The notes under the pieces were generated by a model that saw nothing but the letters and a program-made list of their open reading frames with translations, was not told the origin of the DNA and did not search any database. A DNA stretch of 32,567 nucleotides from an uncultured Candidatus Saccharibacteria bacterium (GTDB lineage Bacteria > Patescibacteriota > Minisyncoccia > Phycocordibacterales > Phycocordibacteraceae): assembly GCA_964357805.1 (NCBI GenBank), contig CAYHMS010000005.1, positions 1 to 32,567 on the forward strand, written 5' to 3'. A program made the position numbers and the translations under genes. Below, in pieces: positions 6,007 to 32,567 of the stretch. The first letter of the stretch is position 1. Every line of letters begins with the position of its first letter.

Positions 6007-6639
6007 TTATTTGCTTACCACTTCCAACAGCGTGCCGCGACGGCCCGGCACGGCGCCGCTGACGATAATCTTACCTGTTTTTGCGTCAACGACGAGCACT
6101 TTCAGGTTTGTCACCGTCACACGGTCTGTGCCAAGACGGCCGGCCATCTTCATACCCTTGGCGACACGGCCTCCCGCGCGCCCGCCCGAGCCGCCGATAG
6201 AGCCCGGGGAGCGCTCGGTGTGCTTCTGACCGTGCGTGCGCGGGCCGCCATGGAAGCCGTGGCGCTTCACGACTCCCGAAAAGCCCTTGCCCTTTGACAA
6301 ACCTGAAACCTGCACGACATCGCCGACAGCAAAAATATCTGCGCTGATTGTATTTCCGACTGCTTGCTGCTCCTGCTCACTGCCTCCTTCAGGCAATCTA
6401 AATTCTTTGATTGCCTGGAATCCCTTCCCCTTCGTATGGCCGAGAACTGCTTTGCTGATATTCTTGGTGCGGCGAACGCCGACACCAACCTGAATAGCGG
6501 AGTATGCATCCTTGCCCTCCTTCGTCTTCACCTGCGTCACTGTGACCGGGTCAGCCGCGAGAATGGTCCCCGCGTGCGCGAGACCGTCCGCCGTAAAGAT
6601 ACGGGTCATCTTTTCTTTCTTAGCGAGAATAAATTTCAT
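6007..6639 (-). CDS. rplC: 50S ribosomal protein L3
   Basis: Start at ATG 6639 (MKFILAKKEKMT); SKGKGFSGVVKRHGF..GSIG..KGMKMAGR..GAVPG. Confidence 0.97.
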   Translation of the reverse strand: MKFILAKKEKMTRIFTADGLAHAGTILAADPVTVTQVKTKEGKDAYSAIQVGVGVRRTKNISKAVLGHTKGKGFQAIKEFRLPEGGSEQEQQAVGNTISADIFAVGDVVQVSGLSKGKGFSGVVKRHGFHGGPRTHGQKHTERSPGSIGGSGGRAGGRVAKGMKMAGRLGTDRVTVTNLKVLVVDAKTGKIIVSGAVPGRRGTLLEVVSK

Positions 6640-6724
6640 TGTTAAAGCAAAACGCGCGATGCAGAGACGCATCGCGCGTTCTGCCATAGGACCGGCCATT
6701 GGGCACCGTTCGTAGCGTTAGCGG

Positions 6725-6753
6725 TACTCTACCCTACCCCTCCAAAAGATGCA
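6725..6753 (-). promoter_or_regulatory. sigma70-like promoter of rplC operon
   Basis: TTGCAT-17 nt-TAGAGT; downstream leader has hairpin AACGCGCGATGC..GCATCGCGCGTT (~6651-6680). Confidence 0.65.
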
Positions 6754-6796
6754 AGAAACAGAACGGCCGCGAGTGATTAGCTCGCGACCCTTTGCT

Positions 6797-6973
6797 TCAA
6801 TCGCCATGACATCCGCCGTGTGGCACTGGACGACCGATTGGATGTGCATCAATTTCGGCACTAAGAGCATCGTAATACGCATCTTCCAGCGCTTCGGCAG
6901 CAACTTGTGCCTTTCTTGCTTCTTCATCTCTTCTCGGCGCGTCTGCAAGAAACTCTTTAAACGTCATTGCCAT
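6797..6973 (-). CDS. small hypothetical protein (58 aa)
   Basis: ATG at 6973 preceded by AAGGAGGG; MAMTFKEFLADAPRRDEEARKAQ..PHGGCHGD. Confidence 0.6.
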   Translation of the reverse strand: MAMTFKEFLADAPRRDEEARKAQVAAEALEDAYYDALSAEIDAHPIGRPVPHGGCHGD

Positions 6974-7070
6974 AGTTCTACCCTCCTTTCTGTCTGTACT
7001 AACAGTAACACACAACCGTCCTTGCGGGCTGTGTGCATTCTTAGCCTCCGTTATTACCTCATCGTCACTA

Positions 7071-7108
7071 TGTTCGTTAAGTCATACGACCGTTGTAGAT
7101 AACGAACA
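7071..7108. repeat. left inverted-repeat copy flanking PaaX-like gene
   Basis: TGTTCGTTA-20 nt-TAACGAACA. Confidence 0.85.
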
Positions 7109-7112
7109 CTGA

Positions 7113-7727
7113 TTATTGTGGTGGCGGAAGGTTGAAATGTTGGCGTAGTTTCTCATCGTGCTCTATTTCATCAGCAACTATGTAGAGAACTCCATATCCA
7201 AGCTTGAGATGTGTACGTAAAAAGACAAGGAGTTTTTCACACGGATACGGGTACGCCCATGCGCTGTCCTGAACTTTGACGAAGCCGAATTCTTTGAGAG
7301 TTTCTCGCAGCTCATCACGCACCTTCCGGCGCCTCTCCCACACATCAAACATAATGATTCTCCATTTCTGGTCCCATTTCCTCTGCTTCGTAGGACGTAC
7401 TTCTTCACGCTGGCTCAACTCTTCAGCAATTTTCATCCCCTTCTCCGTCAGCTCTATGCGAGATCCATGCTGTGTGTTCGTCCGTCTGAATATTCCTTGA
7501 GCAATCAATTCTGAATATTTCTGGCTCACTCGCCGTTTGAGTCGAGGAGAAGGTCCGATGGCTTTTTCTACATACTTGAGAAGTCTCACAGCATTTGGCG
7601 CCATAACTATCATCCCTACTCCAACAGCGAGGTATGTCGAGAGTAAAACTGCATCTCTGATTTGATTACGCTTTGCCCTATGTCTCACCCTCTCCTCAAT
7701 ACTCCCCGTCTGCGCTTTTTTCTTCAT
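7113..7727 (-). CDS. CPR PaaX-family regulator-like protein (wHTH + Cas2-like domain)
   Basis: IELTEKG wing motif, then WDQKWRIIMFDVWERRRKVRDELRETLKEFGFVKVQDSAWAYPYPC. Confidence 0.8.
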   Translation of the reverse strand: MKKKAQTGSIEERVRHRAKRNQIRDAVLLSTYLAVGVGMIVMAPNAVRLLKYVEKAIGPSPRLKRRVSQKYSELIAQGIFRRTNTQHGSRIELTEKGMKIAEELSQREEVRPTKQRKWDQKWRIIMFDVWERRRKVRDELRETLKEFGFVKVQDSAWAYPYPCEKLLVFLRTHLKLGYGVLYIVADEIEHDEKLRQHFNLPPPQ

Positions 7728-7764
7728 GTTCGTTATTCTACACGGTCGTAGGACTTAACGAACA
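7727..7764. repeat. right inverted-repeat copy overlapping promoter/start of PaaX-like gene
   Basis: TGTTCGTTA-ttctacacggtcgtaggact-TAACGAACA; contains minus-strand TAGAAT 7 nt before the ATG. Confidence 0.85.
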
Positions 7765-7834
7765 TTGGAATGTGAATAGCAAAACAAAGTGATGTGGGCT
7801 TCTCTACCCTACCCCTCCAAAAGATGCAAGAAAT

Positions 7835-7971
7835 ACGAAATCCCGCAAAGTGCGGGACTGCTTCAATAAAGATCGGAGCGAATGCCCCCGAAGAGCGACG
7901 GCACTCATCTTGACCGTGTTCGTCGACTAACTCGACCAAGTGCTAGAACGCGATCGCTCTTCGGGAGACCT
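7835..7971 (-). ncRNA. putative standalone structured ncRNA of unknown class
   Basis: Extended -10 (TGaTACACT, 7978-7986); long stem 7953-7967 pairing 7885-7899 with G-U pairs on the minus strand; terminator-like hairpin 7840-7858. Confidence 0.5.
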
Positions 7972-7995
7972 GCACGTAGTGTATCAAATGATATA

Positions 7996-8031
7996 AAACA
8001 CACAACCGCCCTGGTGAGCGGTTGTGTGTTT
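7996..8031 (-). terminator. intrinsic terminator after rpsJ
   Basis: AAACACACAACCGC/GCGGTTGTGTGTTT 14-bp stem followed by U tract. Confidence 0.75.
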
Positions 8032-8049
8032 GTGTCTTGGCGGTCTTTG

Positions 8050-8490
8050 TTAAACCATTTTCACATCTATCGTGACTCCCGACGGAAGATTGAGGTTCGT
8101 GAGGGCCTCTATCACCTTCGGCGAAGGATTGAGGATGTCGATGAGGCGCTTATGGATGCGCATTTCGAACTGCTCGCGCGCGTCCTTATAGACGAAGGTG
8201 GAGCGGTTCACCGTCCAGCGCTTAATCTCGGTCGGCAACGGGACCGGCCCGACGACGACGGCGTCAAAGCGCGCAGCAGTGTCCATAATCTGCTTCACCG
8301 ACATATCCAGAATTTTGTGCTCATACGCCTTCACGCGGATGCGGAGCTTGTGCTCTGTCACTGGAGCGGCCGATGTCGCTTTCTTTTTCGGTACGACCTT
8401 CGCTCGCGGCGCCTTCGGCGCCGCGGCCTTCTTCACCGGGGTTTTCGCCTTCGGTTTTGCTTTTGGCTTCGTTGCCATTTTTGTTGGCAT
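8050..8490 (-). CDS. rpsJ: 30S ribosomal protein S10 with Lys/Ala/Pro-rich N-extension
   Basis: [36 protein letters not shown]. Confidence 0.97.
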
Positions 8491-10004: not shown

Positions 10005-10037
10005 TGAAAGTTAGGACATCGGATGTCCTAACTTTCA
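10005..10037. repeat. perfect 33-bp palindrome (16-bp arms, 1-nt centre)
   Basis: TGAAAGTTAGGACATC-G-GATGTCCTAACTTTCA, overlaps the stop codon of the HicA-like gene. Confidence 0.9.
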
Positions 10038-14410: not shown

Positions 14411-14764
14411 TTAATCCCTAAGAACACGAGAAAGACCATACAACATACGACCGATCTCTTCAGTAAGTTCAAGTGTTTTCCCATATGCAAAACGCGGATA
14501 TACGCTCTGTGCGAGCAAGATTTGTGTCTCCAGTTCGGAAAGAGACCCGTGGGCAATAGAAACAAAATGTGCGTAATCCTTCTTGGAACCACGACGGTAT
14601 CCCTCTGCAATGTTTGAGGGAATTGAAACAGCCGCCCTTTTCATTTGGTCACAAAGACCGAACTGTTCTTTCTGTGGAAACTTTTCAGTTAACGCGTAAA
14701 TCTCGCGCGCAAGTTCCATGGCTTTTTGCCAAACTGACAGTGATTGATATCCTTTCGTTTGCAT
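14411..14764 (-). CDS. four-helix-bundle protein (23S rRNA IVP / Avd-like family)
   Basis: Start ATG 14764; L.VWQKAM.L..EIY.LT.KFP..E.FGL.DQMKRAAVSIPSNIAEG..A.GSLSELETQ. Confidence 0.92.
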   Translation of the reverse strand: MQTKGYQSLSVWQKAMELAREIYALTEKFPQKEQFGLCDQMKRAAVSIPSNIAEGYRRGSKKDYAHFVSIAHGSLSELETQILLAQSVYPRFAYGKTLELTEEIGRMLYGLSRVLRD

Positions 14765-14770
14765 ACTGTT

Positions 14771-14804
14771 TCCTGCCTCCTGCTCCTGCTTACTGCTCAC
14801 TACT
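14771..14804. repeat. GCAGNNN-type array, right arm (inverted)
   Basis: tcctgcctcctgctcctgcttactgctcactact. Confidence 0.85.
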
Positions 14805-15555
14805 ATTCTATAGGCTCTCTATAGGGGTCGGCTGAATAAACCTTGAGCGGAGGTGGGGCAACGAGTACGGGGGGAGAAACGGGTTTCGGCGGTGTTGGAG
14901 GGGGAATAATGGGAGGTTTTGGCGTAAGTGGCGGATGCAGTATCGCACCTGGGAGATTCTGGGGCGGCGGTACTGTTTTTCTAAATTCAATATGGGGCTC
15001 TTCATGGTCCTCAAGCAGTTTTTCGCCAGTGACCGATGCTAAAACATTTCTCAAATCAGAACGTTGGACTGACACCGTGCCCTTCGTAGTCGGCGAGCTT
15101 GCCGACGAAGTAGGGGGACGCGTGATTGGTATCTTATTTTCCAAATGAAAATAGCTCGGCGACTGCGGGGGCGGTCCTACTACGCCAGGGGCTACAGAAG
15201 GACGCGGCCCCACCACACCCGTCGGTGGCGGCGCTTTTTTCATCTCCTCTCGCAACGGCACAAAGATTTGTGTATTCACCTCCTGTACGATGCTGTCGAG
15301 AGTTTGTTTATCAAGATTTGCTTCTTCTACGAGCGATTGAACGAACTCTGTAGAATCTTTGAGTCCAAGTAGAAGCAGAATGAGCTCACGCTCTACAACT
15401 GCCGCCTGGTCGATATGCAGCCGATTCTTCTGCATGAGATTCTTTGCGACAGTTTCCAGTTTACCGTTTGTAAAAACAGCACGTACCGGCGGCGGTACTT
15501 CTTTGAGCAATTCTTTTATATCGCTCTCGAGTGTTGAATCAAAAGGTGTGTCCAT
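14803..15555 (-). CDS. Parcubacteria-type hypothetical protein, Pro-rich linker, C-terminal DPYREP motif
   Basis: Helical N-domain (LHIDQ..E..L.LLGL), ends YSADPYREPIE. Confidence 0.8.
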   Translation of the reverse strand: MDTPFDSTLESDIKELLKEVPPPVRAVFTNGKLETVAKNLMQKNRLHIDQAAVVERELILLLLGLKDSTEFVQSLVEEANLDKQTLDSIVQEVNTQIFVPLREEMKKAPPPTGVVGPRPSVAPGVVGPPPQSPSYFHLENKIPITRPPTSSASSPTTKGTVSVQRSDLRNVLASVTGEKLLEDHEEPHIEFRKTVPPPQNLPGAILHPPLTPKPPIIPPPTPPKPVSPPVLVAPPPLKVYSADPYREPIE

Positions 15556-15564
15556 ACATCAATA

Positions 15565-17733
15565 CTACGGTGTCGCGGTCCCTCCGCTTGCTGACGGCGT
15601 TGCCGTTGGTGCCGGTGCCGGAGTCGCACCGGGTTGTGTTATTGCTCCTTTCTTAATGAGGTCCACTAGAAGTTCGGCATCTTTTTGTTCTTTTGATTTA
15701 CCTGCATTCTTAATGATATTCTCTGCGGCTTTTGTGTTCCTGTAGAGAATCTTCCCGGGACCCCACTGGATATTCCTGGCGTACTCGAGTTGTGGAGCCT
15801 TCGCAAAATCAGCGGCTCGCTTCTTCGCCGCATTCATTTTCTCAGTATTGTCATTAACTTTTTTGTCATGCTCTCTTTTCAGCGTTTCACGTTCCTTATT
15901 TTGTTCATCACGTTTCTGTTGACCACCAAGAAGCGCAGTATTAAGAGCGAGTTGCGCTCGGTCAATCTCTCCTCTATTCCCTGTAGCTTCAGCCGCTTTA
16001 AGCGCATTACGTTTTGCATCAACATCAGTATTGAATGGCTTCAGAGCAGCCGTATGTTGCGCACGAAGGGCTCCCATTTCAATTTCATTTTGATCTTTAA
16101 TAGTTTTCCCCAATTCTTCCAGTTTCTCTGCGAGCACTTTTTCTGCGGCTACCTTTTCCTTTTCTTCCTTGGTCATTTCGAGCGTAGCTGCATATTTCTC
16201 GCGTCCCTCAATAGCTTCTTTCAATTGCTGGCGGTACCCACCTTTTTGCGGAGTTCCGAGATCAATAGAAGAACCGAAAGGAAGATTCTTCAGAGGTTGA
16301 GCGCCGCGTATGTCAAAACTGGCCTTTGCGCCATAATCAAGTACACCACCGAGAGATCGCCCAACAATCGGGATATTTTTAAGCCTGTTGCTTTGGCGTA
16401 GTTTCCGAGATGCCGCTTCGAATCCCCATCCGGCAGTCGTGCGCAATCCTGCTGCGGTAAGCCCGAAGGTGAGCTTGCCGGCGGTTTTTGTTGCCCAGTC
16501 GCCGCCGAAGGCGGACCACCGCTTCGCGTAGACGATGACGGCGAGCAGGAGTCCCATCGCGACGAGGAATGAAAGTATCATGCTCGCGAAGCCGGCTAAA
16601 TCATTACCACTCACAAATCCTACCCAATTTTTTGTGCAGGGTCCGCTACCGCAAAAACCGGTGAGAAATTGAGCATCAGTGATAACGGCGAGGGCTATGT
16701 AGAGCATCATGAGCAGGATGGGCGCAGTGATAGTTTGTTCAAAAATGTTGGTCCACCATTTTTTAGCGAGGTTGGCGAATCCAGGTATTGCGAGACCTGC
16801 GAAGCCGAGTGGCGATGAAATAATGAGAAATACGAGTGCGACGAAACGCGCGATGAGTATGAACGCGAGCGAGAACAGCACGAATGCGGTGACGATGAAA
16901 AGTATGATGCCCATAAAACCAATGAGCCACGTGTTTCCACCTTTAAATACTTCTGGTCTCACTCTACCTGCAGTATAGATGGTCTGGAGTCCTAATTGCC
17001 CCATAATCTTGTTCGAAACACCATCTCTTTCAATTTGCTGCATAAAAGTCGTGTCGCGCATATAGGATGACGTCGGCAAACTACCGCCTTTAATCTGCGT
17101 ATAAAATTGCGTCGCGAAGAGGTTGCCGGTATCAACGATTGCTTCGGCTATGAAAAGAGAAAAGTTAAGGAAGATTGCCGCGACGAACATCATCGGGAGC
17201 ATTTTTTTTGAAACGCCATACCAGTCCACGTTCAGGATGGTGGTGATGCCGACAGAAAGGAAACCGAATATGAGCATAATGTTGCCGATGTCGCGCAGGA
17301 TGCGCCAGGTGACGCCGACGGCGGAGAGCCGATTCACATACTCCCCCATCGTGACGACGGTGTAGTACACCGCATAATCCAACGTAATCGCCGCGACGCC
17401 GACGAGCCACGCGAAGAGCGACATAATCCACGCCATAATTGTGCCAAACCCCTCTATGCTCGCTGGAGTTGCTGGTAAATCGGTTCTCGTGTTTGCGGCG
17501 GCGGGGTCGATCGGTGTACCAGCAGTGGTCTCCGCTGGAATACAGCCCGCATTCGCATCATACTGATAGCCGTATGCGCATGTTTCCGTTCCTGTCTGAA
17601 TGGGCTGACAACCATCATTTTCATCGTAGTTATATCCAGTTGGACAAGTTTGCGCATGCGCGGCGGGCGCTGCGCCCGCCGCGCTCACGAAGAGCGCGAG
17701 AGCGATGAACGATATGCTTAAGAAGCGCCGCAT
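15565..17733 (-). CDS. polytopic membrane protein, VirB6/TrbL-like, with coiled-coil C-tail
   Basis: Start ATG 17733 with signal peptide (AAHA|Q); W.ILRDIGN, AIFLNFSLFI..IVD.GN, R.VALVFL.I.SPLGF, WW motifs. Confidence 0.7.
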   Translation of the reverse strand: MRRFLSISFIALALFVSAAGAAPAAHAQTCPTGYNYDENDGCQPIQTGTETCAYGYQYDANAGCIPAETTAGTPIDPAAANTRTDLPATPASIEGFGTIMAWIMSLFAWLVGVAAITLDYAVYYTVVTMGEYVNRLSAVGVTWRILRDIGNIMLIFGFLSVGITTILNVDWYGVSKKMLPMMFVAAIFLNFSLFIAEAIVDTGNLFATQFYTQIKGGSLPTSSYMRDTTFMQQIERDGVSNKIMGQLGLQTIYTAGRVRPEVFKGGNTWLIGFMGIILFIVTAFVLFSLAFILIARFVALVFLIISSPLGFAGLAIPGFANLAKKWWTNIFEQTITAPILLMMLYIALAVITDAQFLTGFCGSGPCTKNWVGFVSGNDLAGFASMILSFLVAMGLLLAVIVYAKRWSAFGGDWATKTAGKLTFGLTAAGLRTTAGWGFEAASRKLRQSNRLKNIPIVGRSLGGVLDYGAKASFDIRGAQPLKNLPFGSSIDLGTPQKGGYRQQLKEAIEGREKYAATLEMTKEEKEKVAAEKVLAEKLEELGKTIKDQNEIEMGALRAQHTAALKPFNTDVDAKRNALKAAEATGNRGEIDRAQLALNTALLGGQQKRDEQNKERETLKREHDKKVNDNTEKMNAAKKRAADFAKAPQLEYARNIQWGPGKILYRNTKAAENIIKNAGKSKEQKDAELLVDLIKKGAITQPGATPAPAPTATPSASGGTATP

Positions 17734-17734
17734 A

Positions 17735-19552
17735 TCAGAAAGTGGAATATGCAGACGCGTTCGGCGTACAGACCGACGTTTTGAGCGCTTCCGCGTTCGT
17801 GCTAAGCAGGTTCGTCTGGTCAACGAGCGACGAGCCGCTTACGTTGAGCGACCCCGCCGGGCTCGCTTCTGCCCCACCGAAATTCTGCGCGTCTTGCAGT
17901 GCGTTTGCGATATCGCGCGCGGTCGGCGGCATACTCTGGAGCATCTGCACGTCAACGGCGTAGGTATTCGTGATTGAGTCAGTCATAACGGTCGGACGAC
18001 TCGGGTCGCACGATACCGATGCCCCGTCCGGCACATTCGCCTCGCACTGAACCCTGGCCACCATCGCCCGCGCAGTCGCGATTATCGGGGTTACTGCGGC
18101 GGCTTGAGCGAGAACCGGCGCTATCTTGGTCGTGAGCGCGGTCTGCGCAGCAGTTGCCTGCTCGGTCGCCGCCGTTATAAATGCAGCGAGCGTTGGGTCT
18201 GCTCCCGCCGTCGCCGTCGCCACCGCAGCGGTGCAAAAATCAGCGAGACTCCTCACGCTTGTCGAGGCGGCATTCGCCGACGCTTGTATCGTATTCCATG
18301 CCGACTCGTATTGCGCGATGCGGCCGAGCGGGTCGGCGCTCGCGACTGCGGATGCCGCCGCATCCTGATATACACCGGTATTCGAAGCGCCCAAGTAGCT
18401 CGCGCTCGGGTTGAAAGTTCCCGAGGGAGTTGTCGGCGCAAATTGACGGAGTTGAGACTGGCTTGAGCCGGAAGGATGGTCGACGCCGAAGAGACCTCCC
18501 GAACCGCCGAGAAGTTGTGTCGCGAAGTTTACGGTACTCATGATAGTCCCAACATCGCGCAAGACGCTTGTGATTTGAGGGCCTATATTTCCCATTCGCA
18601 GTATTGAATCTTGTTGGCTGCCGAGCGCCTTATTCAAACTCGCGACGATGACCGAGCCCGGCGTCTTGATGGTGCCCGGAAGACCAGTTTCTTTATCGTA
18701 ACAAGGGTCTCCAGGATTTATGCCTTCTTCACCCTCCATTTCTGTACCGTCATTGTCAGCAGTGGTGCCTCCCTCGGTCGCGCCGCACCATGAGGCAAAG
18801 CCCTGACCCCAACCGAGCTCGGCGAGGCGCGCGCCGGTGGCGCCTCCCACTCCCCGGCCGATGAGGCTCGAGAGCTGGCTCTGCGCGGCTTGATGGAGCG
18901 TATATGGATTGTTCTGAATTTGCGTCGTGAGCGCGAACCACGCTCCCACGCCGCCCTGCGACCAGTTGCCGGCAAGATAGGCATTCACATTGGGCGAAGA
19001 GCGCGCGAGCGTGTTCATATTCTCTGCCCAGAATCCGGCGAGACTCGTTTTAGAAAGATAATTGTTGCGCAGCGAGGAGGTGATGGAAGCGGCGAAGGGT
19101 GAATTGGAATTTCGTCCGAACTGATTGAAGAACCCCATTGCTTTCGCATCGCCGACCGTCTGCAGAGACCTTTGCACATCTACCACGAACTGCGGGATGC
19201 CGGTCCCGTTCGCCTGGCCGATAACAAATTTAATGACGCCGGCGGTTATCATTTTCAATAAGTTCCCCGAGAGAACGAAGGCGAGCGGCTGAAGGACATA
19301 GGCGTTTATCTGCATCGCGACACTTGCTAAGTCACCCGTAACGTTAGAGACCGTAGCAATGGTTTGTTCGATAGCAGTGATAGTGCTCTCGACCGTGGTC
19401 TTCACCTCACTACCAACCACAAGTGGATTTGTCTCAAAAACAGGAAGAGCTGCGTACGATTTCTGCGGCACCACAACAAGAAGTGCAGATGGCACAATAA
19501 CTGCACCTATGAGGAGCACCGCAAGCACCAAAGAGAAGGGGCGCATACTCAT
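17735..19552 (-). CDS. secreted/membrane-anchored hypothetical protein (possible VirB5/TrbJ-like N-terminus)
   Basis: 605-aa ORF, signal peptide followed by LPVFETN. Confidence 0.7.
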   Translation of the reverse strand: MSMRPFSLVLAVLLIGAVIVPSALLVVVPQKSYAALPVFETNPLVVGSEVKTTVESTITAIEQTIATVSNVTGDLASVAMQINAYVLQPLAFVLSGNLLKMITAGVIKFVIGQANGTGIPQFVVDVQRSLQTVGDAKAMGFFNQFGRNSNSPFAASITSSLRNNYLSKTSLAGFWAENMNTLARSSPNVNAYLAGNWSQGGVGAWFALTTQIQNNPYTLHQAAQSQLSSLIGRGVGGATGARLAELGWGQGFASWCGATEGGTTADNDGTEMEGEEGINPGDPCYDKETGLPGTIKTPGSVIVASLNKALGSQQDSILRMGNIGPQITSVLRDVGTIMSTVNFATQLLGGSGGLFGVDHPSGSSQSQLRQFAPTTPSGTFNPSASYLGASNTGVYQDAAASAVASADPLGRIAQYESAWNTIQASANAASTSVRSLADFCTAAVATATAGADPTLAAFITAATEQATAAQTALTTKIAPVLAQAAAVTPIIATARAMVARVQCEANVPDGASVSCDPSRPTVMTDSITNTYAVDVQMLQSMPPTARDIANALQDAQNFGGAEASPAGSLNVSGSSLVDQTNLLSTNAEALKTSVCTPNASAYSTF

Positions 19553-20586
19553 GGTTTCTTGACGGCTTGCTGTTTCGCTGCAACATTCTCAATGAGATTT
19601 ACGAAGGAGGCGCCCGGTGCATTAGCGGGGAGAGAAACGTCGGCTGCCGCGTACAGATTTCCTATGCGTATGAATGAATTGGCGAGCGCGAGCACCGCAG
19701 ATGGATACTGTTGGAGAGCGAGTATGGTCGCGAGAGGGTCGGTCTCTGTGCGGGTGAAATCAACGGCAATCTGACTCACGCGCATCATTGCGTTAATGAG
19801 CGCAAGAACATCAGCGGCAAGTTCCTCCGGCACCGGAAGCACCGCGAGCCCGACTGCAGAATCCCGATACGCCTTCGCTATCGAGGCGATATACGAAAGG
19901 GCGGTCGCATCGTTTTTTTCAATTGCGTCTTGAAGGTACAGTATCTCGCTCTTCGACGCATCGGCCGTATTCTTTACGAGAATCGCTTCCGCCTGCGCGG
20001 CGAACTCCATGAGCGCGCCGGGGCTCGACTCGGAGACTTTGAGGTCCTTCATTGATTTAAAATCCGGCGCGGCAACCAGAGATGCCGAAAGCGAATTGAC
20101 GGCCTGATTTGCAATATCGCTCATCTCGCTTTCAGAAAAATCCGCTCCGCCCTTCGCCTGCTTCGCCGCAACAAAGAGCGCAAAAAAGTTTTTTGCGAAC
20201 GCGGCAGTTAAGGTGCCCTCCGCCGGCGCGGGCGGGAGCGAAGAATCCACTATTTCTCCCGCGCCGGCAGAAGAAGCCCCAACTGTAATATCGGCAATCG
20301 CCTTCGGCACGACAAGACCTCGCGCGACCGCTTCGCCGTCGGCCATGCCGAGACCGAAGGTGTCGGTAAGGTGCGGGTCGGTCCCGTAAAGCGCCTCTTC
20401 CCAATCGGAAAGGCCATCGCCGTCCGTATCCTTCGCCGCGATGGCCTGGAGAAGGGCCGCCTCGGTCGAGGCCTGTGCGAGAGAAGGCGACTCGATACCG
20501 CGCGCGAGCATAAACGAACCGACAATAAGGACTGCCGCAAAGAATGTCGCGACGAACACCCTCCAATTTTGCAGAATCTGCCCCAT
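19549..20586 (-). CDS. membrane-anchored protein with TSP3-like Ca-binding repeat
   Basis: N-terminal TM; DTDGDGLSDWEEALYGTDP; start 20586 or 20595. Confidence 0.8.
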   Translation of the reverse strand: MGQILQNWRVFVATFFAAVLIVGSFMLARGIESPSLAQASTEAALLQAIAAKDTDGDGLSDWEEALYGTDPHLTDTFGLGMADGEAVARGLVVPKAIADITVGASSAGAGEIVDSSLPPAPAEGTLTAAFAKNFFALFVAAKQAKGGADFSESEMSDIANQAVNSLSASLVAAPDFKSMKDLKVSESSPGALMEFAAQAEAILVKNTADASKSEILYLQDAIEKNDATALSYIASIAKAYRDSAVGLAVLPVPEELAADVLALINAMMRVSQIAVDFTRTETDPLATILALQQYPSAVLALANSFIRIGNLYAAADVSLPANAPGASFVNLIENVAAKQQAVKKP

Positions 20587-20678: not shown

Positions 20679-21671
20679 ATGCGTGTTTCGCTTCCCTCTA
20701 TCACAATAGTTCTTCTTGTGTTCTCGTTTGGAGCCTGTGCATATGCGCAAACGAGTGCTTTGAACACATTTACGCTGAGTCTCTCACTCGGTTCTCGAGA
20801 TACACAAGTTATCACGCTCCAACAGGCCCTCAATCGAGACTCTGCTACTCGTATTGCAAGCATCGGCCCCGGCTCTCCTGGCAATGAGACAAATTATTTT
20901 GGGTCACTCACGAAATCAGCAGTCATTCGATTTCAAGAAAAGTATGCGAACGAGGTTTTGGTACCCGCTGGTCTGGTACAGGGCAGTGGGTATGTAGGGT
21001 TTTATACGAGAACTAAACTCAACGGGCTTTCCGAGTCGAAAGTGAGTGCGAGAGGTGTGAGCCCGCTTGATGTACCACCGGCAACCACTCCCTCTTCTTC
21101 AACCAGTATCGTCACTCCTCCAACTATTCCACAAAACCCGAATCTAAAGAATTTCGACAAATTTCTGACCGCTCTCGACAATGCGGCAATCAAACAAGGA
21201 ATTCCCGCCGCCACGCTCGCCACTATGAAAGAGCAGGCCGTGAAAGTAATCGCAACAACGACCGATTTACGCACGAATTTTTTGAAAATAGTACAAGACA
21301 GATCCACTCAAATCGTACAGGACACTTCGCTTATCGGCAGAACCTTAGCGATGGTAGAACGAACATTTAATAAGGTCTTCATTCCAAACCGTGCGCATGC
21401 TGCAGCTGGTGTTCCTTTTGGTGGAGCACTTCTGTTCGCTCTCCCCTGCAATGGCGGTGTATGGAACATCACGCTCTCACCGCTCCCTCCTACTTTTGTA
21501 ACCCTCGTCTCTTATATGTCGGGGTCCCAAGCATTCCTCTCGTACAATATACCTGCGACGAGCTGGCTTCTCGGAGAATACACGCCCGGCGCCGGTGCGT
21601 GTTGGATTGGACCGTATTACATCTACTCAGAAGGGCTGATTACGCCAATGGTCGGGTCTTCTCCGATATAA
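20679..21671 (+). CDS. peptidoglycan-binding domain protein
   Basis: Signal peptide; LSLGSRDTQVITLQQALN..GSPGNETNYFGSLTKSAVIRFQ..GYVGFYTRTKLN. Confidence 0.85.
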   Translation: MRVSLPSITIVLLVFSFGACAYAQTSALNTFTLSLSLGSRDTQVITLQQALNRDSATRIASIGPGSPGNETNYFGSLTKSAVIRFQEKYANEVLVPAGLVQGSGYVGFYTRTKLNGLSESKVSARGVSPLDVPPATTPSSSTSIVTPPTIPQNPNLKNFDKFLTALDNAAIKQGIPAATLATMKEQAVKVIATTTDLRTNFLKIVQDRSTQIVQDTSLIGRTLAMVERTFNKVFIPNRAHAAAGVPFGGALLFALPCNGGVWNITLSPLPPTFVTLVSYMSGSQAFLSYNIPATSWLLGEYTPGAGACWIGPYYIYSEGLITPMVGSSPI

Positions 21672-22416
21672 TCGCAAGCCACTGATCAAGTTTTAAGTCC
21701 TCTGCACGAGCTTTCTCCGGAATACCCCCACTTGGAAGTCCGACTTCAACGAGATTGTTCCTCACGAATTTGCGCTTATGCGCAAAGCCCGCATGCAACA
21801 GCATAAAAAATCGCTTTTCTTCTGCTTCTGTTGCAAAGTTCTTTCGAGAAATATTGCGGATAGTGAGCACGGCTGAATCCACCTTCGGTGCGGGCTTGAA
21901 AGCTCCACGCGGAACAATAAATTCACGCTTCGGTGTGCCATACGCTTTTATCGAGAGCGATAAGATACTCTCTTTACCATCATGGGCGACAATACGGTCA
22001 GCGACTTCTTTCTGCACCAAAAGCGTCATCGCGCCCGGCTGGTTCTTTGAGGTAAGAAACTTCCTAAATATGTCGCCGGTGAGATAATACGGAATATTTG
22101 CGACCAGATGATATCCCCTATTCCCCACGGTCGTAATATTTAGGGGATACGTGCGAATGTCGCCGTGTATGAGTTCCAATTTCTTTTTCGCTATCTCATC
22201 CGCAAATTCCAGTTTCAATTTTTCAAAAAGCTCTCCGTCCGCTTCAATCGCAATAATTTTTTTTGCTAACTTTAAGAGTTCTCGCGTGAGCATACCCGTC
22301 CCGGGACCGATCTCAAGTACGACGGCATCAAGCGCGAGCTCCGCAATAAGCGCGATGCGCTCCGCGATACGCGCGTGCATCAAGAAATTCTGCCCGAGTG
22401 ATTTCTTCGCATACAT
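21640..22416 (-). CDS. rsmA: 16S rRNA (A1518/A1519) dimethyltransferase KsgA
   Basis: KKSLGQNFL, VLEIGPGTG.LT, VANIPYYLT, F.PAPKVDSAV. Confidence 0.97.
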   Translation of the reverse strand: MYAKKSLGQNFLMHARIAERIALIAELALDAVVLEIGPGTGMLTRELLKLAKKIIAIEADGELFEKLKLEFADEIAKKKLELIHGDIRTYPLNITTVGNRGYHLVANIPYYLTGDIFRKFLTSKNQPGAMTLLVQKEVADRIVAHDGKESILSLSIKAYGTPKREFIVPRGAFKPAPKVDSAVLTIRNISRKNFATEAEEKRFFMLLHAGFAHKRKFVRNNLVEVGLPSGGIPEKARAEDLKLDQWLAIISEKTRPLA

Positions 22417-22456
22417 GGTGCTACACTACACCCTATAGCAGATAATTAGCTAATAT

Positions 22457-22738
22457 ATGGAAAAAATCACTCCACACGGATTCACTGAGCATGTTCGGCC
22501 ATTACTTTTTAGTGGTCACGGCTTCGATACTGAAAAAGCGAATCACGCAGAGAATGCATACAATTCTTATTTGGTGTCATCAGGGCACAAAGAACTAAAG
22601 AAGGAACACTTCAGTGATGCATTGGAGCATATTCAAGGGCATCCAGATTTTAAAAAACTAAGCCCTCATCAACAAGAGTCTTTTGTCTCCACATTAAGAA
22701 AAACTCTGGGAGTAAAAGAAGAAGTTACAACTGAATAA
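22457..22738 (+). CDS. hypothetical protein (93 aa, low GC)
   Basis: ORF fills the gap between rsmA and pcrA. Confidence 0.55.
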   Translation: MEKITPHGFTEHVRPLLFSGHGFDTEKANHAENAYNSYLVSSGHKELKKEHFSDALEHIQGHPDFKKLSPHQQESFVSTLRKTLGVKEEVTTE

Positions 22739-24719
22739 TTTCTTCTCCATCGGTCTCGTCATAATGCACGAGTGACGGGTCGATGTCGGCGAGGAAGGAG
22801 GAGGGTCCAGTTATGCAATCGCTGCCGTAGAGTTTGCGAACGCGCGCGAGCGTGAGGATGAGGCGTTCCTTCGCGCGCGTCATCGCGACATAGAAGAGTC
22901 GGCGTTCCTCTTCTTCATCGCGACTGTCTTCTCCACCAACCGGCGGACCCATACCTTGGTGCGGGAAAAGGCCTTCCTCCATACCGCTTACAAATACAGT
23001 CTCAAATTCTAAGCCTTTTGCCGCGTGCACGGTCATGAGAGTTACTCCAGTTTTTTCACCTTGACCTGCCTGCGCAGGCAGGTCCATCTCATCTTGGTCG
23101 CTCGCGAGCGCAGATTCGGCGAGAAATGCGGCGATGCCGTCTTTGCCGGGCTGGCTATCGTGTCGCGTAGCGACCGAAGCGAGCTCTTCTATATTTTCAA
23201 ATCGTTCGCGATCATTCGCGCTCCCCTCTTCATAGAGCACACGGCGCATACCGCTTTTCTCAACCACGAGTTTTACGAATGCAGAAGGCACAAGCGAGCG
23301 CGCAGCGCTCGCGAGTTCAGCGATAACACGCTCAAATGATTCGACCTTCGCAAGCTCCCCTGCACGCAATTGCGAGCGCTGTCCTGCAGCTCGCCCAGCA
23401 CCAAATCGGATTTGGTGCTGGGCGAGCTTGCCTAGGGTTATTTTCCCAATACCCCGTGGCGGAGATTGTGCCGCGCGGAGTTTATCAACCTCGCGTGAGG
23501 GATCCATTGCGAGTCGCATCCATGCGAGCGCGTCCTTTACCTCTTTACGCGCGAAGAAATGTGTACCGAGCAGTTTGTACGGCACGCCCGCGTGCAATAA
23601 CCCCTCTTCAAGCGCGCGTGACTGGAAATTAGTACGATATAAAATTGCAATCTCTTCTGGTTTCCGACCTTCCGACATCTGTTGCTTTATCCGGAGTGCG
23701 ATCCAGCGCGCTTCGTCTTCGGCGCTTCGCGCCATATGAACAATGAGCGGCTCGCCAGCGCCGCGCTCGGTCGTTGAATATTTCTCCTTCCGATTTCTGT
23801 TCTTCTCAATGACTGCATTTGCCGCATTGACGATATTTTTCGTCGAACGATAATTGCGTTCAAGAATGAGCGTCCGCGCGTCCGGATATTTTTTTTCAAA
23901 ATTCAAAATGTTCTCCATCTTCGCTCCGCGCCACCCGTATATCGACTGGTCGCCGTCGCCGACGACGAATAGATTTTTGTGTTTTTCCGCAAGCAGGCCG
24001 GCGAGCCGTTCTTGCAGTTCGTTCGTGTCCTGGTATTCATCAATATGAAGATACTCCCAGCGATTCTGCGCGAGCGCGCGAATATCGGCGTGCTCTTCAA
24101 GCATCCGTACGGGGAGCGCGATGAGGTCGTCGAAATCAAGTGCTTTCTCCGCCGCGAGCGACTTTTCGTAGCGGAGCCATACTTCCGCGGCGATGCGATT
24201 GCCGAAACCCGAACGGGCATGTTTCTCGTAGAACTCATGCACACGCATTCCTTCTCCCTTATGGCGTGAAATTCTGCCGAGAACCGCTCGTGGCGAAAGC
24301 CCTGCCTGCGCAGGCAGGTCTTTCGCTCCAACATCAAGCGCTTTCAGCGCCGCGGCCACAACCTTTTCTGAATCATCGCGGTCGTAGATGCTGAAGAAGC
24401 GCGGGACACCGATGGCTTTCCCATAGCTCTCCAAGAGCTCTCGACCGAGGCCGTGGAAGGTCGCTATAAAAGGAGACGAGGAAGTATTTTCTTCGCCAAG
24501 CATCTTTCGGACCCGCTCGCGCATCTCACGGGCGGCTTTATTGGTGAAGGTGACGGCAAGAATTTGATAGGCAGGAACGCCTTCTCGGATAAGATGGTAA
24601 ATGCGCGTCGTGAGAACGCGTGTTTTACCGCTCCCGGCGCCCGCGAGAACCGAGATTGGACCATCTGTGGCAAGCACGGCACGCCTCTGCGCATCATTCA
24701 GTCCCCCAAGATATTTCAC
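22725..24719 (-). CDS. pcrA: UvrD/PcrA-family DNA helicase with four in-frame palindromic inserts
   Basis: AGAGSGKT, TFTNKAA, DEYQDTN, VGDGDQSIY, NYRST, TVHAAKGLEF, EERRLFYVAMTRA. Confidence 0.96.
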   Translation of the reverse strand: MKYLGGLNDAQRRAVLATDGPISVLAGAGSGKTRVLTTRIYHLIREGVPAYQILAVTFTNKAAREMRERVRKMLGEENTSSSPFIATFHGLGRELLESYGKAIGVPRFFSIYDRDDSEKVVAAALKALDVGAKDLPAQAGLSPRAVLGRISRHKGEGMRVHEFYEKHARSGFGNRIAAEVWLRYEKSLAAEKALDFDDLIALPVRMLEEHADIRALAQNRWEYLHIDEYQDTNELQERLAGLLAEKHKNLFVVGDGDQSIYGWRGAKMENILNFEKKYPDARTLILERNYRSTKNIVNAANAVIEKNRNRKEKYSTTERGAGEPLIVHMARSAEDEARWIALRIKQQMSEGRKPEEIAILYRTNFQSRALEEGLLHAGVPYKLLGTHFFARKEVKDALAWMRLAMDPSREVDKLRAAQSPPRGIGKITLGKLAQHQIRFGAGRAAGQRSQLRAGELAKVESFERVIAELASAARSLVPSAFVKLVVEKSGMRRVLYEEGSANDRERFENIEELASVATRHDSQPGKDGIAAFLAESALASDQDEMDLPAQAGQGEKTGVTLMTVHAAKGLEFETVFVSGMEEGLFPHQGMGPPVGGEDSRDEEEERRLFYVAMTRAKERLILTLARVRKLYGSDCITGPSSFLADIDPSLVHYDETDGEEIIQL

Positions 24720-31223: not shown

Positions 31224-31850
31224 CTAGCTGAGTGAAAAAACACGGGAGCCCGAGCTTACGCGGATGCTCTCGTCATTCGTATCGTCGATAGACCACTGCG
31301 GTCCGGAGTAGTAAGCGTAGACACGACGCTCGTCGATGTAGAAGATGTTCATAGAGCCGTCGGCGAGCAGTGGACCACTTTCGCCATTTCTCTGAGCATC
31401 TGTGAGCGCCGCGATTTGCCATGTCTCGATGTTGTGTTTTTCTGGGAGCTCGCCCTTGATCTGCCGATCAGAAGCGTCCCTCGCGAGATCAAAGTAACGA
31501 AGCTTTACGGCGTCAGCACTTTCAACTACCGGCATTTCGTTATAGTAGAACCCACTACCTAGTCCTTCTCTGACGCAACTGCTTTTCTCGTCACAGAAGA
31601 ACTCATTCGGATCGAACCGCTTCGTGAGCGGACCGACTGAAATTTCTCCTCGGAAAAGCAAACAAGGCTTCTTCAAGACTGCCTTGCAGTCTGCTTTCAG
31701 GAATTCGACGAAGCGTGTCCGAGCCGAACGGTCGTTTATGGGGAGAAGGATCTGCCTTAAAGAAACTCCTTCTTTCCCCAACACGCGAATTAACTTCGCG
31801 GCTGTGTCGAGAGAATCGCTCATTACTTCGAGGGATGCGATGTTGGACAT
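31224..31850 (-). CDS. hypothetical protein
   Basis: 208-aa ORF with GGAGG upstream; Q.NGE.GPLL.DG..NIFY..GSRVFS. Confidence 0.7.
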   Translation of the reverse strand: MSNIASLEVMSDSLDTAAKLIRVLGKEGVSLRQILLPINDRSARTRFVEFLKADCKAVLKKPCLLFRGEISVGPLTKRFDPNEFFCDEKSSCVREGLGSGFYYNEMPVVESADAVKLRYFDLARDASDRQIKGELPEKHNIETWQIAALTDAQRNGESGPLLADGSMNIFYIDERRVYAYYSGPQWSIDDTNDESIRVSSGSRVFSLS

Positions 31851-31980
31851 CGGGTGCCTCCAAAAGAACTCAGCTATCCTGAAAGCGGGAAATCCGCGTT
31901 CATTAGCCGAAATGAATTGTACTAAAGATTACGGAAATTGCAAATCAATAATGTGCGCACTTCCCTGCTATACTTTCAGT

Positions 31981-32567
31981 ATGAAAGCCGAGGATGCGAA
32001 ACGACAATTTTTGGAGTACATCGAGATAGAGCGCGGGCGCGCGGTGAAGACCATTGAGAATTATGACCGGTATCTCTCGCGCTACTTCGCGCAAATGAAG
32101 ATAAAGAGCGTGAATGATATTAGCGAGCAGAATGTCCGCGACTTCCGCCTCTGGCTCAACCGCCAGAGGGGCACAGGAAGCGATTCGATGAAACGCCGGA
32201 CGCAGAATTATTATATGATTGCGCTCCGCGCGTTCCTGAAGTTTCTGCGCAAGCGCGATATTGACGCTATCTCGCCCGAGAAAATAGAGCTTGCGAAGCT
32301 TCCCGAGCGCCAGTTGGACCTTATCACCTCTGTAGAATTGGAACGACTCATGCAAGCACCACGCGATGCATTTGAAAAAGAAAAAGACCCCGACAAAGCG
32401 CGGTCGTATCTGCGGGACCGCGCCATTCTTGAATTATTGTTCTCCACGGGCTTGCGCGTCTCCGAACTCTGCGCGCTCAATGCCGATATTGACCTCTCGC
32501 GCGACGAGCTCTCGGTGCGCGGCAAGGGCGAGAAGGTCCGCGTCGTCTTCCTCTCCCCCACTGCCAA
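31981..32567 (+). CDS. XerC/XerD-like tyrosine recombinase (partial, runs off window)
   Basis: Absent from the ORF track; own translation MKAEDAKRQFLEYIEIERGRAVKTIENY..ALRAFLKFL..RDRAILELLFSTGLRVSEL..VRGKGEKVRVV. Confidence 0.93.
   Translation, partial: MKAEDAKRQFLEYIEIERGRAVKTIENYDRYLSRYFAQMKIKSVNDISEQNVRDFRLWLNRQRGTGSDSMKRRTQNYYMIALRAFLKFLRKRDIDAISPEKIELAKLPERQLDLITSVELERLMQAPRDAFEKEKDPDKARSYLRDRAILELLFSTGLRVSELCALNADIDLSRDELSVRGKGEKVRVVFLSPTA

Follow-up and report, generated by a model that had tools for sequence, protein, structure and literature searches.

In the REP/RAYT system, inverted copies of a palindrome that is also scattered in the genome stand on either side of a single-copy gene, and the gene and repeat families appear to co-vary; RAYT is an HUH Y1 transposase, and the REP repeats number tens to hundreds per genome. 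Rickettsia palindromic elements lie in frame in genes, where they fall in surface loops of housekeeping proteins, and are patchy among relatives. In E. coli, the PaaX box is TGATTC(N27)GAATCA, and the Px promoter of PaaX is under repression by PaaX itself (PMC9493321). In plasmid pMV158, the RepB nick sequence, 5'-TACTACG/AC-3', occupies the apical loop of the IR-I hairpin (PMC1851628, PMC5030251), and a passing remark in another paper has integron cassettes often carrying Cas2-like proteins (PMC3710099). Here we describe a 38-bp dyad element that occurs three times in a 32,567-nucleotide stretch of DNA (the window; GenBank assembly GCA_964357805.1, contig CAYHMS010000005.1) from an uncultured Candidatus Saccharibacteria bacterium. 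The genomic setting is a ribosomal-protein/EF-G/EF-Tu region of Patescibacteria. One copy lies inside the rsmA gene and two flank a PaaX-like gene.

The element consists of outer 9-bp arms at positions 1-9 and 30-38 and a 20-nt centre. On the dyad of the arms lies an inner core, TAC-GACC-GTN, in which positions 16-23 and 17-22 are complementary. Copy 1 (22112..22149, minus strand) reads TATCCCCTA-ttccc-CACGGTCGTA-atatt-TAGGGGATA on the plus strand and TATCCCCTA-AATAT-TACGACCGTG-GGGAA-TAGGGGATA on the coding strand, and belongs to the arm class TATCC..GGATA. Its host gene is rsmA/ksgA for the 16S rRNA dimethyladenosine transferase (21640..22416, minus strand; Pfam RrnaAD, E=3.4e-42). The copy is in frame and encodes the peptide YPLNITTVGNRGY immediately before HLVANIPYY, which bears out the first-pass annotation of this DNA, where it had been placed in frame ahead of VANIPY. 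Copy 2 (7727..7764, minus strand) reads TGTTCGTTA-ttcta-CACGGTCGTA-ggact-TAACGAACA on the plus strand, with the arms TGTTCGTTA/TAACGAACA. The geometry and core that had been claimed for the two sites are indeed the same, both having perfectly complementary 9-nt arms, a 20-nt centre and an identical central 10-mer. The final base of copy 2 is the A of the ATG of P0002 (proteins are numbered P0xxx, and loci from the genome scan described below L0xx), the PaaX-like open reading frame (ORF) of the window. P0002 encodes 204 aa (7113..7727, minus strand; Pfam PaaX_M, E=5.8e-19) and is placed between rpsJ (8050..8490, minus strand) and rplC (6007..6699, minus strand). A -10-like TAGAAT, read by eye and not called in the promoter scan, extends across the loop and arm of copy 2, 7 nt 5' of the ATG, and a Shine-Dalgarno sequence was not found between this copy and the ATG. 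Copy 3 (7071..7108, plus strand) carries the arms of copy 2 in inverted orientation, with the core TACGACCGTT on the opposite strand at one mismatch, and lies 4 nt past the P0002 stop. Copies 2 and 3 form a 39-nt inverted repeat pair with 85% complementarity.

Several counts separate the element from background. The exact central 10-mer occurs twice in the window and, with at most one mismatch, six times against 1.72 expected, a number that 0/100 shuffles attained. Perfect 9-20-9 inverted repeats number exactly three, all with the core, whereas shuffles have 0.2 on average and never more than 2. The 17-base pattern of positions common to the three copies gave three matches against 0.00 expected, with no other sites, and a covariance model built from 18 copies matched only the same three in the window (51.1 bits and E 4.8e-10 for copy 1, 53.9 bits for copy 2 and 53.6 bits for copy 3). 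Chance is excluded by these results, and the element is real.

The window is rich in other palindromes. It holds 13 perfect inverted repeats with arms of at least 10 nt, compared with 0.7 in triplet shuffles (maximum 3), among them those at 23388-23428, 23063-23084, 22840-22880, 17658-17684, 20411-20447 and 10005-10037, several within ORFs. One, a perfect palindrome of 41 bp, lies within a uvrD/pcrA-like gene. The scan locus L025 has several as well, within rsmA and a helicase gene, which suggests that palindromes in coding DNA are a general tendency of such genomes.

A genome-wide pattern search had been proposed with the first-pass annotation, and it revealed further copies. One scan of 185,579 species genomes with the 17-base pattern returned 38 loci, none of which corresponds to the window's own sites, the window's own genome being absent from the matches. 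The pattern fixes the core and 3/9 arm pairs, leaving six pairs free, and in its strict form under-counts copies. Arm mismatches over the 38 loci are bimodal, with 11 loci having none, three having one, two having two and 22 having three to six; the chance of full pairing at the six free pairs is 1/4096 per locus. Fifteen of the 16 low-mismatch loci (0-2) are from metagenome-assembled genomes (MAGs) of Patescibacteria (Paceibacterota, Kaiserbacteria, 'Patescibacteria group', 'Saccharibacteria'), and the sixteenth, L004, is a long perfect palindrome in an actinobacterium. The 22 high-mismatch matches (Bacteroidales, Enterobacterales and others) were taken as chance. This mismatch distribution over all 38 matches is the independent evidence for pairing, as the covariation in the 18-copy alignment (96.9% paired, 5/9 pairs with double changes) comes from rows preselected for pairing. 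The comparison supports an element family that is widespread in Patescibacteria, with a fixed centre and complementary arms that vary between copies. Among the chance matches, six from Bacteroidales/Prevotellaceae MAGs (L002, L006, L011, L018, L026 and L036) share an identical 29-nt stretch, ACTTCTACGACCGTTCAGCC-TAGGCTGAA, which holds a 7-bp hairpin of its own and is an unrelated repeat family.

At least seven arm variants occur among the 15 good Patescibacteria copies. The class TGTTCGTTA/TAACGAACA comprises L005, L007, L016 (with one substitution), L019, L023, L032 and L033 together with window copies 2 and 3. The class TATCCCCTA comprises the window rsmA copy and L025, with the near variants TATCCACTA (L009) and TATCCGCTA (L024), and five more variants are found once each. 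Copies of the TGTTCGTTA class are spread over different MAGs and contexts (the rpsJ-rplC spacer, downstream of trmD, after ung, and others) and differ at non-core loop positions. The arms stay equal between species and loci whose free loop positions vary, so the arm sequence is constrained within a class; judged from these alignments, it is the arm sequence, beyond pairing alone, that is conserved. Solo elements also recur at orthologous sites of different species: L007 and L032 each have one downstream of trmD, and the window and L005 share the rpsJ-rplC spacer as a site. Strict-pattern matches number one or two per MAG, compared with three copies in the 32.5 kb of the window. L024 and L032 hold extra adjacent copies of a different arm type with 24-nt centres, forming tandem clusters (1957-2081 and 1935-2038, respectively) of two or three elements of different arm classes; the clusters include a ATATCAAA..TTTGATAT type with 10-nt arms around the 24-nt centre, and that of L024 includes a reversed copy with arms of ~7 nt. 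In L023 (~1900-2130) a direct repeat of ~45 nt (GTCGCCGGGG.CATGACGCGAGGTTTTTGTTTGG.AATTATTT) stands on both sides of the element.

These arm classes bear on the earlier proposal that the arm variation conserves structure and points to recognition as a hairpin. The arms do differ and yet pair, but they are not free to vary, as TGTTCGTTA/TAACGAACA is found in 7/15 genome copies and the rsmA arms recur in L025; recognition as a duplex palindrome fits at least equally. As single-stranded DNA (ssDNA), the rsmA copy folds at -5.5 kcal/mol (z -0.95), no better than shuffles.

The association of the element with a PaaX-like gene, the other part of the initial description, recurs outside the window. 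In a tblastn search over the scan loci, a PaaX-like gene was found in L014 only, with 38% identity to P0002. The L014 element has arms of its own, TATTGTTTA/TAAACAATA, and its last base is once more the A of the first ATG, with a TACAAT 7 nt 5' of the ATG in the same place as the TAGAAT of the window. A second copy with the same arms, in direct orientation, lies 57 nt past the stop (27.3 bits). The element of L007 lies 15 nt upstream of a promoter-like TTGACA-17-TAATAT, and a promoter-like site in L019 was read by eye and not called by the promoter scan. The rsmA copy belongs to the element family, but nothing was found that ties its different arms to the PaaX-like protein of the window.

Side features surround the PaaX-like gene. 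A perfect 32-nt direct repeat, CTCTACCCTACCCCTCCAAAAGATGCAAGAAA, occurs at 6727-6758 and 7802-7833, 1075 nt apart; on the minus strand its copies lie just downstream of terminator-like hairpins (6789-6765 and 7859-7839) and upstream of rplC and of the PaaX-like gene, respectively. By eye it reads TTGCAT-N17-TAGAG(T/A) and may be a duplicated promoter, and both copies recur in L005 in diverged form. An acidic ORF of 58 aa (6797-6973, minus strand) follows immediately downstream of the PaaX-like gene and copy 3; it has a strong Shine-Dalgarno sequence and is without a match in Pfam, NCBIfam and PADLOC.

P0002 matches TIGR02277 PaaX at positions 40-130 of 279 only, with 32 bits (cutoff 264.55), and TIGR01573 cas2 over its first 39 positions, with 25.1 bits (cutoff 24.5); the PADLOC match is Cas2 (E=4.1e-06). 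PaaX_M, described in Pfam as the 'central Cas2-like domain' of PaaX, was matched by 38/38 family members. By its domain matches, P0002 is a winged helix-turn-helix (wHTH) plus Cas2-like 'mini-PaaX', that is, the N-terminal half of PaaX without the effector domain. The single sequence had no match among PDB sequences, and the family profile gave weak matches to MarR-type wHTH structures in the PDB and to E. coli PaaX (8a39) at E=0.56. A profile search shows the family to be large: 5,549 cluster representatives pass E<=0.001, 2,799 pass E<=1e-10 and 406 pass E<=1e-30, and among the best 150 most are near full length at about 170-220 aa. ESM Atlas neighbours of P0002 are PaaX_M clusters from Roizmaniibacteriota, Minisyncoccota and Zambryskiibacteriota. 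By identity, several paralogue classes can be told apart (groups at 74-91%, about 56-66% and about 50%), and a single contig of 32,639 bp carries two paralogues. Over 141 representatives, variability peaks in the putative recognition-helix segment (mean entropy 3.11), and conservation is highest in the Cas2-like segment (1.57), with W118, D119, R123, D128, Q153 and S155 at 0.99 and R137 at 1.0. A variable wHTH joined to a conserved core parallels the variable arms and conserved centre of the element.

The RsmA loop was compared among relatives, as had also been proposed. The protein search returned 7941 homologues at E<=0.001, the best ones 70-80% identical, and those with names are labelled Patescibacteria, Kaiserbacteria, Paceibacteria or Minisyncoccota. 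In 120 close homologues the loop is of the element type in 46 (13 residues, YP...GY), of a short type in 63 (FDIxxLPKGY) and of a long type in 11 (NWDFEMYLNSRYSVKDG...). Outside the loop, P0009 (element type) is 93.6% identical to P0043 (long) and 89.8% to P0027 (short), and the mean identity within loop types equals that between types, at 0.76-0.80. Relatedness was judged here by pairwise identity outside the loop, the maximum-likelihood tree of the 120 RsmA proteins having just seven well-supported branches. By this measure, turnover of the loop, whether by exchange, gain or loss, is far faster than that of the rest of RsmA. Because loop type is uncoupled from RsmA relatedness, the rsmA copy looks acquired rather than ancestral. 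The dispersal into coding DNA that had been suggested agrees with this pattern, and allelic exchange fits it too. The loop proved patchy rather than conserved, and one contig, described below, shows no simple coupling of its type to PaaX-like genes. The third, longer allele (NWDFEMYLNSRYSVKDGT.DY; P0030, P0043, P0049 and others) is scattered among close relatives of the other two types.

Does the element inside rsmA keep its symmetry as the loop evolves? After a third protein search, 72 element-type loops were available among 190 parsed RsmA proteins, as protein sequences, with the DNA seen for the window and L025. Forty-eight of the 72 are able to encode 9/9 arm pairs, and the rare arm variants are compensatory by codon (YPL..N-R-GY, YPH..K-W-GY and YPQ..D-C-GY); a shuffle of 30 haplotypes gave P=0.02-0.026 for arm pairing. 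The central tripeptide (nt 16-24) is AIA in 29 loops, TTV in 24, TTA in six, ATA in four and another in nine. In the series TTV>TTA>ATA>AIA the codons fix A16..T23, then A16..C23, then G16..C23, and the step from A16..T23 to G16..C23 is a compensatory change of a pair on the arm dyad. The rsmA element would therefore stay symmetric even where the canonical core is replaced, and its symmetry may be kept either by selection or by a palindrome-correcting mutation process. In the rsmA of L025, the only rsmA that the scan recovered as DNA, all nine arm pairs and the core are kept at 73.7% protein identity. Codon identity between the window and L025 is 10/11 in the element and 76/174 elsewhere (P=0.0017), a difference inflated by the pattern-based retrieval; for unforced sites only, P is estimated at about 0.06. 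A flip of the whole loop was considered for the homologue P0003 and rejected. The in-silico flip of the 20-nt loop gives YPLFPTVVIFRGY, whereas P0003 has YPYFHTVVQKLGY, and its loop relatives P0242 (CPYFHTTVQKWGY) and P0252 (YPHFDTTVLKWGY) have the same flanks with a sense TTV, so that only the central dinucleotide differs (AC to GT).

Taken together, the placement at the gene start, the conserved arm classes and the parallel in domain variability favour a duplex site for a mini-PaaX. We therefore propose, tentatively and at somewhat less than an even chance, that the rsmA site is a copy of a Patescibacteria 38-bp dyad element to which a dimeric mini-PaaX of the lineage-specific wHTH-Cas2-like family would bind as to its cognate site; the protein binding, the dimer geometry, the regulation and the paralogue we infer. 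In such a complex, the two variable wHTH domains would contact the outer arms and give rise to arm-class specificity, and the conserved Cas2-like dimer core would be positioned over the invariant centre. Over the start of P0002, where the -10-like box falls inside the element and the ATG begins at its last base, binding could result in autorepression, as with PaaX at Px. The rsmA copy (TATCC..GGATA) would be bound by a paralogue rather than by P0002. It may have been acquired by part of the lineage in a tolerant loop between the GD motif and ANIPY, and could serve there as a roadblock or a titration site or be merely tolerated.

A number of observations weigh against the duplex-site proposal. 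The core has the sense orientation relative to neighbouring genes in 14/18 copies and 11/14 independent loci (one-sided binomial about 0.03), a bias that is unexpected for a symmetric duplex site. RNA folding gives a two-tier hairpin capped by a GACC tetraloop (-14.5 kcal/mol, z -2.2 for the copy labelled W1; -13.6, z -3.7 for L025), and copies 1 and 2 share their loop asymmetrically, at 15/20 positions in the same orientation. L005 aligns to the window on both sides of the gene (a terminator-like hairpin on the left, TTGGAATGTG.ATAG...AAAAGATGCAA on the right) and has one element and no gene where the window has element, gene and element; a deletion between the arm repeats would also account for this arrangement. 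Contigs with PaaX-like genes are short, with a median of 2,048 bp compared with 5,758 bp for RsmA (Mann-Whitney p=7e-8), and 59% of them fall below 2.5 kb compared with 21% for RsmA homologues. The gene-free L005 and the short contigs hint that the PaaX-like gene is a strain-variable, repeated or mobile cassette. The window ORFs are without a paralogue for the arm class of the rsmA copy. On one contig, PaaX-like paralogues of 86% and 58% stand beside a short-loop RsmA, so gene and site are not coupled in any simple way. Finally, the position of D128 is presumably that of the catalytic aspartate of Cas2, and its near invariance suggests an enzyme rather than a passive repressor.

Some of these observations would be expected if the element acted as RNA, an explanation that we consider unlikely overall. 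The sense strand would form a strand-specific two-tier hairpin with the 9-bp outer stem, an internal loop, a UAC/GUN inner stem and the GACC tetraloop, to be bound or cut by the Cas2-like (RNA-recognition-motif-like fold) mini-PaaX or by another factor. It could then govern how the PaaX-like mRNA, which has its start codon inside the stem, is translated, and could act on the stability or translation of further mRNAs, that of rsmA among them. Besides the orientation bias and the folds above, which beat shuffles also in copy 2 (-11.7, z -3.0) and L014 (-8.6, z -3.7), this account is in line with the missing Shine-Dalgarno sequence ahead of P0002, with the position of several copies 3-57 nt past stop codons (L013, L016, L029 and the second copy of L014), and with a covariance-model score of the sense strand 20-35 bits over the antisense. 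Selection on structure only, however, would allow the arms to drift, whereas they are identical across species and loci. Copy 3/L005, L009 and L034 are antisense to all adjacent genes, and the L007 element stands upstream of its promoter-like site. Rfam gave no match at the gathering threshold in the whole window and none at E<=1 over 6650-8100 and 21600-22800. A strand test on G-T versus A-C pairs was set aside, since its 16 versus 2 is biased by T's fixed in the pattern and the three unforced pairs, at 4 versus 2, are uninformative.

An ssDNA function is likewise improbable in our estimate. Here a small mobile cassette system would use the hairpin or cruciform for nicking or recombination, in the manner of a rolling-circle origin or a REP/att-type site, and the wHTH-Cas2-like protein or an HUH enzyme would cut the conserved centre, move the gene-plus-element cassette and seed solo elements, including that of rsmA. 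The core resembles the pMV158 RepB nick sequence, whose full TACTACGAC is present in L016, L019, L025 and the extra copies of L024 and L032, but this likeness spans 7-10 nt and may be coincidental. Two same-arm copies enclose the gene, in inverted orientation in the window and in direct orientation in L014; L005 has the look of an empty site, the contigs of PaaX-like genes are short, the RsmA loop type is patchy and D128 is 99% conserved. On the other hand, no HUH/Rep protein, transposase or integron integrase was found in the 45 window ORFs or the 37 element-flanking ORFs of 15 loci, and tblastn with P0002 gave no match in phage and plasmid collections. Copy number is low (three in 32.5 kb, one or two pattern matches per MAG), solo elements keep their orthologous places from one species to another, and the rsmA copy folds weakly as ssDNA. 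A wider version of this idea strikes us as equally doubtful: the wHTH-Cas2-like proteins of Patescibacteria might be site-specific nucleases or recombination factors, each matched to its own arm class, rather than repressors. They would then form an undescribed selfish or domesticated mobile system on the Cas2 fold, analogous to REP/RAYT or rolling-circle nick sites, which moves gene-plus-hairpin cassettes and seeds hairpins in frame in essential genes such as rsmA.

That the rsmA copy is a non-functional passenger, which landed in a tolerant loop of genomes prone to making and retaining palindromes (e.g. through template-switch correction), persists for want of harm from its peptide and owes its symmetry to mutation bias rather than use, is very unlikely: the palindrome excess of the window and L025, the ~40% of element-type RsmA loops (29/72, AIA) that no longer encode the TACGACCGT core and the single rsmA in the species genomes that matched the DNA pattern would suit it, but L025 keeps nine arm pairs and the core intact at 73.7% identity, the codon identity with L025 is high in the element, though inflated as noted, compensatory arm haplotypes occur, and even with AIA the centre has to be palindromic (GCn ATn GCn).

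Other loci of the window deserve mention. An ORF at 14411-14800 encodes a 23S rRNA-intervening-sequence protein/bAvd-like protein and stands beside a segment (14803-19552) with three large ORFs of 250, 752 and 605 aa, which have no Pfam match and may form a variability or defence-type locus. The ORF at 26869-27174 matches the HicA toxin family (E=3.7e-08). Ribosomal protein S10 (8050-8490, minus strand) is extended at its N-terminus by ~45 residues rich in Lys, Ala and Pro, ahead of the Pfam S10 domain (residues 50-144).

Patescibacteria (CPR, the Candidate Phyla Radiation) have tiny genomes and few recognised regulators and are largely uncultured. The pairing of a large, diversified mini-PaaX family with a recognisable 38-bp site may offer a first way into a regulatory or DNA-processing network peculiar to this lineage. 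In rsmA, paired changes such as L/N-R, H/K-W and Q/D-C offer a clean natural case of a nucleic-acid symmetry constraint written in a protein, in an essential gene with a loop allele uncoupled from its own phylogeny. In the openly available literature that was searched, no paper links PaaX-like or Cas2-like proteins of Patescibacteria to such a motif.

How, then, does the element compare with the known systems? Integron attC sites have conserved ends and a variable centre, whereas a conserved centre and variable arms are found here; no IntI/attI was found near the element, the sole integrase-family ORF of the window being Xer-like (31624-32565) and 9.5 kb away. A likeness to pMV158 may lie in a short-stem hairpin with a conserved loop sequence. 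The 9-mer is present in full in 3/18 aligned copies and two extra copies, and the rsmA copy has TATTACGAC at the nick-like site; TACGAC is in all retrieved copies, an invariance that is uninformative as TACGACCGT was fixed by the search pattern. Unlike the pMV158 site, the element is chromosomal among housekeeping genes, has no Rep gene, recurs at orthologous positions and carries the core at the dyad centre. With REP/RAYT it has in common a gene between inverted copies of an element that is also scattered, and a seeming co-variation of gene and repeat families, but the flanked gene is PaaX_M/Cas2-like, the copy number is low and the flanking copies of L014 are direct. With Rickettsia palindromic elements it shares a patchy, in-frame palindrome in a loop of a housekeeping protein; it differs in its 38 bp (13 codons), in a loop that is replaced rather than extended (+3 aa compared with the short type), and in a conserved centre common to sites at a regulator-like gene.

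In operator and protein type, the likeness is to PaaX. Both proteins have a wHTH and a central Cas2-like domain (PaaX_M; TIGR02277 in part). The operators are also of one type, with two short, distant inverted repeats (TGATTC-N27-GAATCA compared with an outer 6 bp-N26-6 bp here), and in each case the regulator's own gene bears a site. P0002 differs in its 204 aa without the C-terminal effector (phenylacetyl-CoA) domain and in its 32 bits against the 264.55 cutoff, and its Cas2-type Asp position is 99% conserved. The element differs in the invariant, dyad-centred core within its spacer, in its several arm classes, in the absence of paa genes nearby and in copies past stop codons and inside a coding region. 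By analogy, the element may be filed as a PaaX-type bipartite operator with a truncated regulator, made unusual by its invariant centre, its arm classes, a cassette-like polymorphism and an in-frame copy that evolves compensatorily in an essential gene.

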